64,000 nucleotides of DNA. Source: a virus. Taxonomy: Duplodnaviria > Heunggongvirae > Uroviricota > Caudoviricetes. The translations under genes were made by a program, and so were the position numbers. The notes under the pieces are model-generated. The model saw nothing but the letters and a program-made list of their open reading frames with translations. It ran no database searches and had not been told where the DNA came from. Shown here one piece after another: positions 8,373 through 13,908 of the stretch (position 1 is the first letter of the stretch; the number at the start of each line of letters is the position of its first letter). Location: the IMG/VR virus record IMGVR_UViG_3300024268_000012; one strand, given 5' to 3'.

Positions 8373-10064
8373 GTGAACGCAGTAATGAAGATGTTTGAAG
8401 GTCAGGAAAAGTCTCTCGCCCAGTTTGACACTTATCGTCGTGATTACGCGGACGCTGAGTGTTGCACTCAGGCTAAGCCTGTTGAAGAATTGCTGATGCC
8501 GTGGGCAATTAACAAGGCTGGTCTGTATCAGATGTTCGACGAGAAGCTGATTCTGACCAAGGAAGTTTCCTATAACCGTGACCATGAGGAACTTGCCCAG
8601 CAGATGGACGTTATGCTGAGCCAGCATCGTTCCTTTGTGCAGACTTTTTTCGCTCGTCTGGCGGAAGAGCTGGGTATCCGTCCTGATTCTTGGCGCACCA
8701 ATGCATATATGGATGACTCTCCCAATGAGTTTTTCTACTACAGCATGCGCTATCTGATGAACGATCATAGTCTGGTCGAAGCTCGTGTGGACTCTCCCAT
8801 GAAAGCTACTATTTGCGGTCAGCAGATGAATTTTGCCGTGGGTCAGAAGGCTATGCGTGCAATCGGCAAGGTGGCTCGTGCTCTTGGTCTGAACGAAGAG
8901 TTTGAAGCCTTCCGTGTGGCACACTCTATGGTGCTGAATCAGGCTAAGCTGAAGGGCAAGCTGTGTCTGTCTATCCATCCCCTCGACTATGCTACTGCTT
9001 CCGACAACGAAAGCGGTTGGTCCAGCTGCATGTCTTGGCGTGAGGGTGGCGCATATCGTTTCGGCACTGTCGAAATGATGACTTCTTCCTATGTCATTTG
9101 TGCCTATCTGGCTTCCGATTCCGTAGAAATGGAAATCGGTGAAGGTAAGTGGCCGTCCAAGAAGTGGCGTGCTTGGGTTATCGTTACCCCTGACTTCATT
9201 GTTGTAAACCGCAACTATCCCTATGACAATGAAGATCTGATGCGCGCTTGCGTAGATTGGGTCAAGGAAATGGCTGGCGAGTATTACCATGTCAAGTATG
9301 GTGAGACTCATAACAACTGGAATCAGAATGAGTTCTTTGAGATTGATATGAACTATATGTATAACGACCTTGGTGATGGTCACGTAGGTTGTTATGCAGA
9401 AGGTGCCGATACTGGCTACTGTGATCATATCAACATCTCTGGTCCCGCTATCTGTATGTGGTGCGGCGAAACCGTTGACTACAACAGCGATGATGATGCC
9501 GCATGCACCTTGACTTGTCAAGAGTGCAGCGGCCGGGTTCGGTGTGCCTGCTGTGGTGCGTCCATTAGTCACGGCTACGAGATGTGGGGTCCGGATGATG
9601 AGCCGTACTGCGAGTGCTGCTATCAGGATCGGTTCAGCACTTGTGATTGCTGTAATGATGTGGTGGATAGTGACACAATTTATACTGTAAGCGTACCCGT
9701 GGATCACGAATGGGCTAAGCAGTGGATTGCCGCCTGGGATCATGATCATCCTAATGGCTCGCGCTTCTATCACTACATTCCTGAGGAGATTACCGCTCGA
9801 GTATGCCCCATCTGCCTCAAGGATGCTGGCATTGATCCTGATAAGGATCTTGAATGGGATCCCATTCTTCCTTTCCACAAGCATAATCATTGGGGTGGCT
9901 ATAGCCGCTACTGGAATGGTTCTGTCATTCATCCACGTTTCAAGTGGAATGATGTATGTGGACTGTTTGGCTGTGAATATGACGATGAGTTCTATGCCGC
10001 GATTTGGCATCGCTATGCCGAGTCCGTGCGTAGCCATCGCTGGAACGAAGCCTTGTTCATTTGA
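8373..10064 (+). CDS. Hypothetical protein of the 'IHPLDY' family with a Cys-rich C-terminal zinc-ribbon region; paralog of 12493-13908
   Basis: 563 aa. Shares the block LCLSIHPLDY..S.N...W.SC with the paralog, and both have C-terminal CxxC clusters. The antisense ORF 8238-10037 is judged spurious. Confidence 0.65.
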   Translation: MNAVMKMFEGQEKSLAQFDTYRRDYADAECCTQAKPVEELLMPWAINKAGLYQMFDEKLILTKEVSYNRDHEELAQQMDVMLSQHRSFVQTFFARLAEELGIRPDSWRTNAYMDDSPNEFFYYSMRYLMNDHSLVEARVDSPMKATICGQQMNFAVGQKAMRAIGKVARALGLNEEFEAFRVAHSMVLNQAKLKGKLCLSIHPLDYATASDNESGWSSCMSWREGGAYRFGTVEMMTSSYVICAYLASDSVEMEIGEGKWPSKKWRAWVIVTPDFIVVNRNYPYDNEDLMRACVDWVKEMAGEYYHVKYGETHNNWNQNEFFEIDMNYMYNDLGDGHVGCYAEGADTGYCDHINISGPAICMWCGETVDYNSDDDAACTLTCQECSGRVRCACCGASISHGYEMWGPDDEPYCECCYQDRFSTCDCCNDVVDSDTIYTVSVPVDHEWAKQWIAAWDHDHPNGSRFYHYIPEEITARVCPICLKDAGIDPDKDLEWDPILPFHKHNHWGGYSRYWNGSVIHPRFKWNDVCGLFGCEYDDEFYAAIWHRYAESVRSHRWNEALFI

Positions 10065-10110
10065 AAAATCTAAAAAAATTTGATATAATATATATGTAAG
10101 GTTGAGAGAG
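10061..10110 (+). promoter_or_regulatory. Conserved promoter cassette copy
   Basis: TTGAAAAATCTAAAAAAATTTGATATAATATATATGTAAGGTTGAGAGAG. Confidence 0.65.
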
Positions 10111-10172
10111 AAAGAAATCTCTCAGAAGATTTTGGCTAAGAGCCACGACAAAAAGAAAGTGAGGAAACCAAT

Positions 10173-11420: not shown

Positions 11421-11432
11421 GGAGATGAAATC

Positions 11433-12509
11433 ATGGGTAGACTATTTACAGACAAAGAACGTCGTACCTTTGAACAGCTCTGCGCACTGCGACAGAATGG
11501 TGTTCTTCAAATGATGCGACAATTTCTCAAGTCTAAATATGAAAATGTCATCGCTACTCCTTCTTATATTGTCGCAATAGGAGATATACCCGTGGCTCTT
11601 GTAGCTCATGCAGACACTGTATTCAAGAGTCCACCCAAAGAATTCTATTATGACAAAGATAAGAATATCATGTGGAGTCCTGATGGTTTGGGTGCGGACG
11701 ATCGTGCTGGTGTATTTGCAATCATGAAGATTGTTGCACTTGGTCAGCGTCCTCACGTAATCATCACCACCGATGAAGAGAGTGGCTGTATCGGAGCGAA
11801 TAAGCTTGCGGGAAAGATGAAAACTTTCCCTGCACCTTTGAAGTTTATGATTCAGCTGGATCGGCGAAACGACAAAGACGCAGTTTATTATGATTGCGAC
11901 AATGAAGAATTTGAGAAGTTCATTACGCCTTTTGGCTTTGAAACTGAGTGGGGTTCTTTCACAGATATTTCTATCTTGGCTCCCGCTTGGAAAGTTGCTG
12001 CGGTAAACTTTTCTGTTGGTTATCGTGATGAACATTCTCAAGTCGAACGATTGAATGTTAATGCACTATTTGATACGATTGATAAAGTGCAGACTATTCT
12101 TCATAAGGTAGATACTGATAAGTCTATTCCTACATATGAATATGTTGAGAAGTATGCATATGGTTATGGATATGGCTACGGTGGATGGTATGACGATGGT
12201 TATTATCTTCACCGCAATGGATGGTATCAAAAGCTGGAAGATGGTGAAGAGCGTTGCCAGTTCTGCGGCGAAGTGGACAAGAAAGAAAATCTTCTTCCGC
12301 TACACTGGCATGCAGCCACTTCTACCGATATGATTTTCCATGTATGTAATGAATGTTATGCTCACTCAGTTCGTGAAATTGAGTGGTGTAGTAAATGCAA
12401 CAAGGGCTACTTCTTGACAAAGAACGACCTTGATAAAATGCCCGCAGATCGCAATAAATGGGTATGTAAACATTGTCAGGAGGATAAGCCTAATGATACA
12501 GTGGGATAA
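11433..12509 (+). CDS. M20/M28/M42-family metallopeptidase-like domain fused to a C-terminal Cys-rich zinc-finger region
   Basis: 358 aa with the ALVAHADTV and GADDRAGV (HxD / GxDDxxG) zinc-peptidase motifs. The C-terminal part carries several CxxC pairs and a GYGYGYGGWY repeat. Confidence 0.5.
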   Translation: MGRLFTDKERRTFEQLCALRQNGVLQMMRQFLKSKYENVIATPSYIVAIGDIPVALVAHADTVFKSPPKEFYYDKDKNIMWSPDGLGADDRAGVFAIMKIVALGQRPHVIITTDEESGCIGANKLAGKMKTFPAPLKFMIQLDRRNDKDAVYYDCDNEEFEKFITPFGFETEWGSFTDISILAPAWKVAAVNFSVGYRDEHSQVERLNVNALFDTIDKVQTILHKVDTDKSIPTYEYVEKYAYGYGYGYGGWYDDGYYLHRNGWYQKLEDGEERCQFCGEVDKKENLLPLHWHAATSTDMIFHVCNECYAHSVREIEWCSKCNKGYFLTKNDLDKMPADRNKWVCKHCQEDKPNDTVG

Positions 12510-13908
12510 GAGTATTCAAGATCAGTTTAATGAGGTAATCAGATATTCTCAGGGAATTAAAGACCCACAAACAGATAAGCTGTTTGAAATTTGGTCTAAA
12601 CGTAAGTGGGGATTTTGGGATTCCATGGATAAACAGCTGATCTATGAATTTCCTCAGCCCGTAACTCTTGAAATGGATGCACAGACTAAGGAAGATCGAC
12701 TATCTCATTTTCTTGATTGGGTAAGTCGTTTCTCTGAAAGTTTGGGCGATTTCCTTGATGCACAACGCGACGGTTTTTATGATAACAAAACCATTTCTAA
12801 TTGGCACACTGATGATGATGTTATTCCTGCGGGAATGAAAATCAGTAAAGCTATCGGTCGTTACTGGCGAGACTATCTTGATCCTATTCAGATTGACACT
12901 GTTCAGTGTGAAATCAGCAGAATGATTCAAGAGAACAAGGTAACTGGACGACTGTGTCTGTCTATTCATCCTCTTGATTATCTTTCTCTGAGTGAAAATC
13001 AGCATAATTGGCGTAGCTGTCATGCGCTTGATGGTGAATATCGTGCGGGAAATCTTTCTTATATGCTTGATCAAACTACGGTTATTGCATATATCAAGAG
13101 TGATGAAGATACAACTCTCCCTCGATTTCCTGCATCTGTGCCGTGGAATAATAAGAAATGGCGTTGCCTTTTCTTTGTTGATCCTGGTCGCAGTTTGGTA
13201 TATGCGGGACGACAGTATCCTTTCTTTTCTGAAAATGCTCTGAATCTGGTACGTCAGTGCTTGCTTGAGCCGTGTAATTATTTCATGAATAAGATCCACA
13301 CTTTTGAGGTAGGTATTCCGTGGCGTCATAATTGCGTGGTCGGTGATTGCGAAATTGATGGCGAGCATGTATATCTACATCAGCCACACATTTTTGATGC
13401 TAATACTTGTATCAGATTGGCTGATTGGGTTCAGGATGTTACTGATTCAATGCATTTCAACGATCTTTTGAGATCAAGTTTTTATACTCCTTGGACTCTC
13501 CGATATAGGCAGAGAGCTGATCGAGAACTACTCCAGCAGGGCCCGATGATGGTTGGCGACGCAATCCCCTGCCTCGTGTGTGGAAGCACAGAGTCACATC
13601 ATCAGGTTTGTAATTCTGATGTTATGGCTTGTGAAGAGTGCGTACTTGAAGATTCCAATATGGAAGTTGAATGGATTGTTGAGTGCGCAGAATGTGGAGC
13701 ACGAATTGTAAGAGACGATAGCTATTGTCATGATGGAGAATATTATTGTGACAGTTGCGTTGACGCTCATACATCTCATTGCGAGAAGTGCGGGACTGCT
13801 ATTCTGGAATATGAAGATACTGCATATACGGGCAAAAATGGTGAAACTCTTTGCTGGCATTGTTATCATTATCCAAATGGCGATCGGAGTGACCCTTATA
13901 CTTGGTGA
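12493..13908 (+). CDS. 'IHPLDY'-family Cys-rich protein, paralog of 8373-10064
   Basis: The start is chosen at MIQWDK (RBS CAGGAGGA); the ORF track gives 12430. LCLSIHPLDYLSLSENQHNWRSC is conserved with the paralog. Confidence 0.6.
   Translation: MIQWDKSIQDQFNEVIRYSQGIKDPQTDKLFEIWSKRKWGFWDSMDKQLIYEFPQPVTLEMDAQTKEDRLSHFLDWVSRFSESLGDFLDAQRDGFYDNKTISNWHTDDDVIPAGMKISKAIGRYWRDYLDPIQIDTVQCEISRMIQENKVTGRLCLSIHPLDYLSLSENQHNWRSCHALDGEYRAGNLSYMLDQTTVIAYIKSDEDTTLPRFPASVPWNNKKWRCLFFVDPGRSLVYAGRQYPFFSENALNLVRQCLLEPCNYFMNKIHTFEVGIPWRHNCVVGDCEIDGEHVYLHQPHIFDANTCIRLADWVQDVTDSMHFNDLLRSSFYTPWTLRYRQRADRELLQQGPMMVGDAIPCLVCGSTESHHQVCNSDVMACEECVLEDSNMEVEWIVECAECGARIVRDDSYCHDGEYYCDSCVDAHTSHCEKCGTAILEYEDTAYTGKNGETLCWHCYHYPNGDRSDPYTW

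Follow-up and report, generated by a model that had tools for sequence, protein, structure and literature searches.

Two paralogous IHPLDY-family genes and a conserved peptidase-gene partner in a Caudoviricetes genome

The window examined here, a whole stretch of 64,000 nucleotides from the Caudoviricetes record IMGVR_UViG_3300024268_000012 of IMG/VR, contains two genes, hereafter A and B, whose products share a central LCLSIHPLDY block and end in Cys-rich tails. An initial annotation had placed them at positions 8373–10064 (563 amino acids) and 12493–13908 (471 amino acids), and both assignments agree with the listing of open reading frames (ORFs). Between the two lies a gene for a PepT/M28-like di-metal peptidase, and the conserved pairing of this gene with members of the IHPLDY family is the strongest result of our analysis.

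The IHPLDY genes and their family

By using an all-against-all BLAST comparison of the 43 large ORFs in the window, we identified A and B as its sole pair belonging to this family. The two products align in BLASTP with an E value of 5e-21 and 24% identity over ~430 amino acids, a region that takes in the LCLSIHPLDY...W.SC...G.YR.G block (KLCLSIHPLDYATASDNESGWSSCMSWREGGAYRFG in A and RLCLSIHPLDYLSLSENQHNWRSCHALDGEYRAG in B) as well as the tails, each of which has exactly six CxxC pairs. Judged by their sequences, A and B are real paralogues with similarity well beyond chance, and the shared block and C-terminal CxxC arrays described in the initial annotation were thus recovered. The ORF at 1180–2871, which at 563 amino acids is equal in length to A, was considered as a third paralogue and dropped because it is without similarity. 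Gene A has a GAGGGG ribosome-binding site 7 nucleotides before its GTG start, whereas AGGAGG precedes the ATG of B by 8 nucleotides. The mechanical ORF of B opens at a TTG at 12430, and its homologues all start at the MIQW... methionine (12493).

Table 1 Positions of the principal features of the locus within the window.
Feature	Positions	Strand	Basis or remarks
Promoter cassette of A	8318..8346	+	TTGAAA-17-TGATATAAT, extended -10
Gene A, IHPLDY-family paralogue, 563 aa	8373..10064	+	GTG start, TGA stop
Conserved core of A (~residues 191-345): LCLSIHPLDY, WSSC, YRFG, KKWR, NRNYP, YND	8943..9407	+	Alignments
Cys-rich tail of A, six CxxC pairs C361 to C481	9453..9815	+	Net charge -22
Promoter cassette of the peptidase+B operon	11374..11402	+	TTGATT-17-TGATATAAT
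PepT/M28-like di-metal peptidase gene, 358 aa, partner of the IHPLDY genes	11433..12509	+	Sequence matches, conserved ligands, adjacency
Gene B, IHPLDY-family paralogue, 471 aa	12493..13908	+	ATG start, TGA stop
B N-terminal domain, residues 1-124, mainly helical	12493..12864	+	Secondary structure of the model
B core, residues 125-350, predicted GNAT-like beta1-alpha1-alpha2-beta2-beta3-beta4-alpha3 topology	12865..13542	+	
B acidic module, putative Cys4 zinc sites	13543..13905	+	CxxC count; weak LIM matches; net charge -19

Each of the two genes had also been credited with its own promoter cassette. The repeated cassette consists of TTGAWW, a 17-nucleotide spacer and TGATATAAT, which corresponds to a consensus host-type promoter with an extended -10 element. 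The TGATATAAT portion occurs at 22 sites in the window between 6053 and 54765, all on the + strand and against 1.2 expected, with TTGAWW usually 17 nucleotides upstream. The claim stands for A, but no cassette precedes B, and the nearest one serves the upstream peptidase-like gene. Because that cassette lies before the peptidase gene, and because the TAA stop codon of the peptidase gene falls 17 nucleotides inside B, B is predicted to be the second gene of a two-gene operon and to be co-transcribed with the peptidase gene. The 17-nucleotide overlap further suggests that translation of B is coupled to that of the peptidase. A strong terminator-like hairpin is located at 11342–11372, just before the operon cassette. 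Gene A appears to be monocistronic, since the next cassette is already present at 10061–10089. Taken across the window, the 22 cassettes look like phage-wide, near-identical host-type promoters that cut the region into many short transcription units.

The family to which A and B belong is very large. When a collection of 5.8 billion proteins was queried separately with each product, B retrieved 1,742 relatives and A retrieved 1,252, none of which carries a name or a Pfam domain. A profile made from both subfamilies recovered 7,278 cluster representatives (clustered at 50% identity) at E<=1e-3 and 2,654 at E<=1e-30. The contigs bearing homologues derive from gut metagenomes, and many are binned in metagenome-assembled genomes (MAGs) of Lachnospiraceae, Acutalibacteraceae and other Clostridia; IMG/VR holds many relatives of 150–200 kb. 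Orthologues of A and B co-occur on the same 126–361 kb contigs, which indicates that the duplication is old. No DNA nearly identical to the window was found among 50,697 phage records.

In agreement with the initial annotation, which had recognized no function, neither A nor B matched an entry in Pfam (E<=0.1), NCBIfam, PADLOC or the sequences of the PDB, and a PDB profile search gave nothing significant, the acetyltransferase that it returned having an E value of 0.95. Only B matched PHROGs, namely phrog_18912 (E 3e-12) and phrog_29713 (E 1.5e-4), both of unknown function. No match was obtained for A in PHROGs at E<=0.01, and tblastn with A reached the phrog_29713 gene of Enterococcus phage VRE9_2 at 4e-5; tblastn also gave matches of 1e-8 to 3e-5 to the Enterococcus phage relatives. 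A profile match to a known structural or replication family would have spoken against the initial annotation, and none was found. Membership of A and B is supported by the presence in both of the family motifs S-x-x-P-x-D, W-x-[ST]-C, G-x-Y, K-x-[WY]-R, Y-P and [YW]-x-D. A relationship to PcfJ was also considered and dropped, because an hhalign comparison of the family with the Vescimonas PcfJ protein returned a probability of 1.9% and aligned the zinc knuckle only. The only domain fusions in the Vescimonas branch are two probable chimeras with YqaJ.

The family is thus present in databases only as unnamed or unknown-function clusters. In the searchable literature, we found no description of a GNAT-like fold assignment, an invariant residue set or a peptidase partnership for it, and nothing on the phrog identifiers or on the combination of PcfJ, YodL and anti-defence genes. 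A survey of polyvalent proteins, which are conflict proteins of phages and conjugative elements, reports RimI-like GNATs and YodL in such settings and does not describe the IHPLDY family (PMC5512222). Likewise, a study of plasmid leading regions makes no mention of it (PMC11541004).

A conserved peptidase partner

The product of the gene between A and B has a catalytic domain at residues 1–230, followed by a Tyr/Gly-rich linker and a tail with four CxxC pairs. It matches the Pfam families M28 (2e-4; at 21.5 bits just over the cutoff, 21.3) and M20 (9e-4), as well as phrog_34186 (2.7e-52) and phrog_4191 (3.5e-29), the latter annotated as 'peptidase'. A profile of the protein recovered PepT-like tripeptidases from the PDB (3rza, 3e-9; 3gb0, 6e-9). 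Its ligand and catalytic residues, H59, D61, D89/90, E115-E116, D143 and H201, are invariant in seven orthologues of 26–54% identity, where they lie within the motifs AH59xD61TV, GxGxD89D90RxG, DE115E116xG, LD143R and GYxxE200H201. The protein therefore has both the di-metal ligands and catalytic Glu of clan MH (M20/M28/M42) in canonical order and a match to a curated profile of that clan.

A conserved partner gene, for which the initial annotation had recommended a check, was found in this peptidase. We examined 22 MAG-derived loci with enough upstream DNA, 66 IMG/VR loci recovered with an IHPLDY seed and 80 recovered with the peptidase as seed. The peptidase gene directly precedes the B orthologue in 21 of the 22 MAG-derived loci, and it is within the flanks, mostly adjacent, in 55/66 of the IHPLDY-seeded loci. 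With the peptidase as seed, an IHPLDY gene was present in the flanks of 79/80 loci and immediately downstream in 72 of the 80. Note that these 80 loci are the closest relatives, so the figure of 79/80 mainly describes one clade. The counts as a whole are dominated by one phage clade, and independent support is provided by the Enterococcus-phage and Oscillospiraceae-element lineages.

In the 140 kb Enterococcus phage VRE9_2, genes for phrog_18912, phrog_34186 and phrog_18912 are consecutive, and 1.2 kb upstream of them lies a phrog_29713 gene. On Vescimonas fastidiosa pMM35_02 and two other Oscillospiraceae elements, a single IHPLDY gene is directly followed by the peptidase gene (BLASTP 9e-44). 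The partnership is therefore conserved in three unrelated kinds of element, which are phages of gut Clostridia, Enterococcus phages and plasmid or integrative and conjugative elements (ICEs) of Oscillospiraceae. The gut-phage clade has the order peptidase then B, whereas the plasmid/ICE type has the IHPLDY gene then the peptidase. This reversal between lineages indicates that adjacency has been kept through rearrangement. Moreover, whichever gene comes first, its stop codon overlaps the start codon of the next or lies almost beside it, and the translational coupling that this implies in each case suggests that the peptidase and the IHPLDY protein may form a complex.

The plasmid/ICE neighbors of the pair include a RecD2-like helicase, YqaJ, YodL-domain, AcrIIA9-family and PcfJ-domain proteins and LigA, and a Tn916-type Xis and integrase are encoded nearby. 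In three of these loci (L006, L036 and L037), the block runs in the order RecD2-like helicase, YodL-primase-like protein, AcrIIA9-family protein, PcfJ, LigA (not in every case), IHPLDY protein and M28-like peptidase. The first of the three is pMM35_02 itself (NZ_AP023417.1, 114872–132020), a linear 'plasmid' of 142 kb from a cultured strain of gut Oscillospiraceae; together with the related integrated elements it would offer a tractable cultured source of the module. Natural variants also exist (L032, L033; L026; L065–L067, L073) that have A and the peptidase without B, or a B-type gene without a peptidase gene within 6 kb, and these would be useful controls for dependence between the parts.

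Several genes without recognized function occupy fixed places around the module in related phages. These are a 421-amino acid gene upstream of A (4002–5267), a 158-amino acid gene between A and the peptidase gene (10173–10649) and a 112-amino acid gene (14031–14369) that directly follows B, or follows the peptidase gene where B is missing (L032). No Pfam or PHROG match was obtained for these three genes, which may or may not be part of the module. Also upstream of A, in relatives as well as in the window, is a gene (6950–7789) for a 279-amino acid protein that has a DnaJ-like CxxCxGxG...CxxCxGxG zinc finger near its N terminus and matches phrog_30451 (3e-38; unknown function).

Domain architecture and invariant residues

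An AlphaFold model of B, calculated from an input alignment of 41 sequences, has a predicted local distance difference test (pLDDT) score of 90 and a predicted template modeling (pTM) score of 0.82; for a model of the core only, the values are 84.5 and 0.82, and both models thus count as confident. The full model comprises a helical N-terminal domain, in which W34, K38, G114 and K116 are conserved, an alpha/beta core of approximately residues 125–350 and zinc-knuckle repeats. Foldseek comparison of the full model with the PDB produced weak matches of the tail to LIM domains (E 0.06–0.4, probability up to 0.92), and GNATs were among the weak structural matches of the full-length model. The structure-search matches listed include aminoglycoside acetyltransferases, RimI, an Eis-like protein, FemA, malonyl-CoA decarboxylase, Sbb17 and ATE1. 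The predicted order of core elements, with further strands after alpha3 (Table 1), is the GNAT order, and in the model the core looks like a very divergent GNAT-like domain, that is, one resembling acyl- or aminoacyl-transferases. Fold similarity of the kind expected for FemABX proteins, L/F-transferase or ATE1, including the two GNAT-like lobes that serve Fem and ATE1 as a tRNA/acceptor cleft, was not found.

We next consider residue conservation in an alignment of 20 sequences with 19–42% identity to B. Besides proteins of the A and B types from gut phages, it includes three paralogues from Enterococcus phages, the Vescimonas type and sequences from distant MAG loci. At a divergence of ~20% identity, S157, P160, D162, W173, C176, G181, R224, Y242, P243 and D324 are invariant, and K38, G114, K116, S167, S175, Y183 and G186 are nearly so. 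In the model, the invariant residues are carried by beta1, the loop that joins alpha1 to alpha2, beta3, the final part of beta4 and a helix further along. From the polar members of this set (Ser, Asp, Cys, Arg, Tyr and Asp), which persist at such divergence, we infer an active site and catalysis. This conservation, together with the model, suggests that the IHPLDY core is an enzyme rather than a simple inhibitor.

The six CxxC pairs in each tail, which are conserved in the family, are enough for three Cys4 zinc sites. For B, we propose from the order of the pairs that the sites would be formed by C360/363 with C380/383, C398/401 with C419/422 and C430/433 with C454/457. Gene A additionally encodes a specific C-terminal extension beyond its tail, up to residue 563. 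Within the family, tails range from no zinc site to three or more, and in one Enterococcus paralogue the tail is made up purely of Asp, Glu, Tyr and Trp. The Pfam LIM profile gave a weak match in 3/20 family members (best E 0.019), and no Pfam match was present in the two window proteins. The tails are strongly acidic, with a mean net charge of -15 over 40 B-type proteins, and the isoelectric points (pI) of the whole proteins are 4.3–4.9. The acidity of the tails argues against their binding nucleic acid and would favor protein docking or charge mimicry.

Genomic context, proposed function and related systems

Beyond the locus itself, the window encodes topoisomerase II subunits, an RNA ligase and a number of host-like metabolic proteins. 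The latter are a FolD-like tetrahydrofolate (THF) dehydrogenase/cyclohydrolase (347–1180), a formate/nitrite-transporter-like protein (10673–11266, minus strand), a CitMHS-type transporter (17034–18380), an S-adenosylmethionine (SAM) synthetase (33626–34858) and a formate-THF ligase (53020–54681; Pfam E 1.6e-238). Together these genes look like a formate-to-one-carbon module of a large gut phage. The transporter-like gene, which lies between A and the peptidase gene, is the sole minus-strand gene of the region and occupies the same spot in some relatives. Two further products are unusual in a phage genome: an 823-amino acid protein (38026–40497) that matches the shoulder domain of the Major Vault Protein (1e-21) as well as a Vault repeat domain, and a 485-amino acid SPFH/flotillin-type protein (50215–51672). 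A literature search for vault-protein and formate-THF-ligase genes in phages found nothing.

The window also carries 33 tRNA genes within 16850–33744, all on the + strand, and one of these (26718–26808) specifies a 91-nucleotide tRNA whose variable arm is long and whose anticodon, CUA, reads amber codons. The stop codons of 42 large ORFs are TAG in 1 case, TAA in 23 and TGA in 18, and the rarity of TAG together with the CUA tRNA hints at TAG reassignment or at recoding of late genes. This question does not touch A, B or the peptidase gene, whose ORFs are closed by TGA or TAA. Amid the tRNA array are two additional paralogous pairs (20942–21373 and 31022–31465, 42% identity; 24335–25039 and 25910–26653, 35%). 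Downstream of the locus, a homologue of RelE-like toxins (15266–15532; phrog_1213, 6e-8), for which no obvious antitoxin was called, is followed by an AAA ATPase gene (15667–16824; phrog_2376, 4e-104). A PHROG scan of ten small neighboring ORFs yielded nothing useful besides this toxin homologue.

Our leading explanation, which we hold tentatively and with somewhat less than even confidence, is that A, B and the peptidase constitute one three-gene enzymatic module with two activities, one transferase-like and one hydrolytic, that aids establishment of the element. Each IHPLDY protein would combine its helical N-terminal domain and GNAT-like core with an acidic three-Cys4 module that docks onto a protein partner or target. 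A and B would both act alongside the protein encoded between their genes, a lid-less PepT/M28-like di-metal hydrolase of aminopeptidase type that has its own zinc-ribbon tail. Host RNA polymerase would turn the module on as the DNA enters, with the peptidase and B produced from one promoter through their overlapping stop and start codons and A produced from its own. The module might then covalently remodel an amino group or N terminus, whether the substrate is a peptide-like metabolite or a protein of the host or of the element, with transfer performed by the IHPLDY core and trimming or hydrolysis by the peptidase. The expected outcome is that the phage or conjugative element is helped to establish. 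A more specific version of this proposal, which we regard as very unlikely to be right in all its parts, places the core in a new, non-acetyl-CoA branch of the GNATs (compare L/F-transferase, ATE1 and Fem) that transfers aminoacyl or acyl groups, possibly from aminoacyl-tRNA. In a complex with the peptidase, it would rewrite the N termini of certain host proteins, the peptidase by trimming and the core by tagging, and thereby inactivate these proteins or mark them for host proteases, with A and B directed to different targets by their zinc modules. The mobile element would in this way encode a system for editing N termini that serves host takeover or counter-defence.

The initial annotation had suggested that A and B may be anti-defence or host-takeover factors. 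An early or establishment role of the module fits the host-type promoters and the plasmid/ICE context, and to this extent the suggestion is supported. The anti-defence part of it is plausible, but A, B, the peptidase and the small flanking genes gave no PADLOC, Pfam or NCBIfam match to defence, anti-CRISPR or anti-restriction families.

A number of observations weigh against the enzymatic reading of the core. No Pfam GNAT family was matched by any of the 20 divergent members at E<=5. The Q/R-x-x-G-x-G/A pyrophosphate loop of motif A, which binds acetyl-CoA, is absent at the beta4-alpha3 junction, where there is no glycine loop; the consensus at that position is AGRQYPFxS, and distant members have [GS]-[RK]-x-Y-P-x-x-x. 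Some GNAT-like folds are non-catalytic, for example that of ornithine decarboxylase antizyme. The loop containing W173 and C176 is poorly modeled (pLDDT ~51 in the core-only model), and the His of IHPLD varies, being Asp or Arg in distant members. With respect to the module, no fusion protein joins an IHPLDY protein to the peptidase, and ~10–15% of loci with an IHPLDY gene have no peptidase gene within their flanks, some of them being cut by contig ends. The modest fold match to enzymes favors the alternative in which the IHPLDY proteins are non-catalytic adaptors or inhibitors. Their acidic zinc modules and helical domains would bind host proteins, possibly DNA- or RNA-binding defence proteins through charge mimicry, and either block them stoichiometrically or hand them over to a shared peptidase, with the paralogues providing several specificities. 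Two or three paralogues per genome alongside a single peptidase gene are consistent with such an arrangement, as are the variable length and zinc count of the tails, their strong acidity (purely acidic in one Enterococcus paralogue) and the presence of AcrIIA9-family and other conflict genes in the context. However, ten invariant residues, six of them polar, at ~20% identity would not be usual for a protein that takes part in an arms race by binding alone, the core is constant across the family while the tail varies, and a hydrolase of exopeptidase type would be an odd executioner of whole proteins. We therefore consider this alternative possible, though on balance doubtful.

The remaining alternatives differ in the substrate that they assign to the proteins. 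Somewhat more doubtful is a role directed at nucleic acids, in which DNA, RNA or tRNA is modified or processed (for example by altering bases or aminoacyl-tRNA or by taking off peptide adducts) or replication or recombination of the incoming element is assisted. The plasmid/ICE neighbors, among them the RecD2-like helicase, YqaJ exonuclease, NAD-dependent ligase, HU and an RNase T-like exonuclease, would accord with this role, as would the 33 tRNA genes and RNA ligase of the phage and the possibility that K222 and R224, both invariant, and R184 and R240, both nearly so, bind phosphates. Nevertheless, the acidity of the proteins and of their tails speaks against direct binding by the tails, and no nucleic-acid enzyme family or fold was ever matched. 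The richness of the window in host-like metabolic genes would instead agree with an auxiliary metabolic module that feeds metabolic reprogramming by the phage. Its GNAT-like N-acyl transferase and its PepT/aminoacylase-like hydrolase would have small molecules as substrates, for instance amino acids, peptides or glutamyl conjugates of the folate type. Among the hydrolases of clan MH are aminoacylases, ArgE/DapE and carboxypeptidase G, and acylase/deacylase pairs are common in amino-acid pathways. This explanation is unlikely, because the pair is equally kept in Enterococcus phages and ICE/plasmid elements without those metabolic genes, the formate transporter is missing from many syntenic loci, and zinc-ribbon docking modules and multi-paralogue sets are untypical of small-molecule enzymes. 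Finally, the large size of the proteins is the only feature that would recommend a structural or virion-associated role or a chance-ORF artefact. Both are effectively refuted by the thousands of homologues with full-length conservation, by the location in an early-promoter region far from any recognizable structural module, by the homologues in plasmids and ICEs and by the lack of any structural-protein match.

Through the conserved, coupled pairing with an intact metallopeptidase, what had been two 'hypothetical proteins' become parts of a defined module of three genes, with putative catalytic residues that can be tested. The family is among the larger ones without any annotation. It is found in phages of 126–400 kb that belong to Clostridia of the human and animal gut, in Enterococcus phages like those isolated on vancomycin-resistant enterococcus (VRE) strains and in conjugative or plasmid elements of Oscillospiraceae. 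Modification of host proteins at entry would represent a new enzymatic strategy for phage or plasmid establishment or for counter-defence in Gram-positive gut bacteria, and a core that proved to be a true GNAT derivative without a CoA site would extend the chemistry of that superfamily. For the Enterococcus phages, the role of these early genes bears on host range.

The partner enzyme has the His-x-Asp, Asp, Glu-Glu, Asp and His set of Peptidase T and other M20/M28-like enzymes in canonical order. Unlike M20 peptidases, it is missing the lid/dimerization domain, and the alignment with 3rza accordingly skips residues ~185–340 of that chain. Unlike PepT and M28 enzymes in general, it bears the Tyr/Gly-rich linker and a predicted Cys4 zinc-ribbon tail, and it has an IHPLDY gene nearby in nearly all loci. 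The tails of the IHPLDY proteins resemble LIM domains and double zinc ribbons in their tandem CxxC...CxxC zinc knuckles but differ in having three sites, all-Cys ligation without His or Asp and a strongly acidic character. The true relatives by sequence, phrog_18912 and phrog_29713 (for example CDS0073, CDS0071 and CDS0078 of VRE9_2), share the core motifs and adjoin the phrog_34186 peptidase. They show ~20–28% identity, do not keep the His of IHPLD, number three paralogues compared with two here and have tails that are absent or acidic, contain one zinc ribbon or contain several.

AcrVA5 is a GNAT-fold anti-CRISPR protein that inactivates Cas12a by acetylation. Both AcrVA5 and the RimI-like GNATs of polyvalent proteins are canonical acetyl-CoA GNATs that can be recognized by sequence, whereas the IHPLDY family is not recognizable in this way. 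What the IHPLDY proteins would share with both is the concept of an early mobile-element transferase that acts on host proteins, and with the RimI-like GNATs they also share a type of neighborhood, that of YodL-containing conjugative-element genes (PMC5512222).

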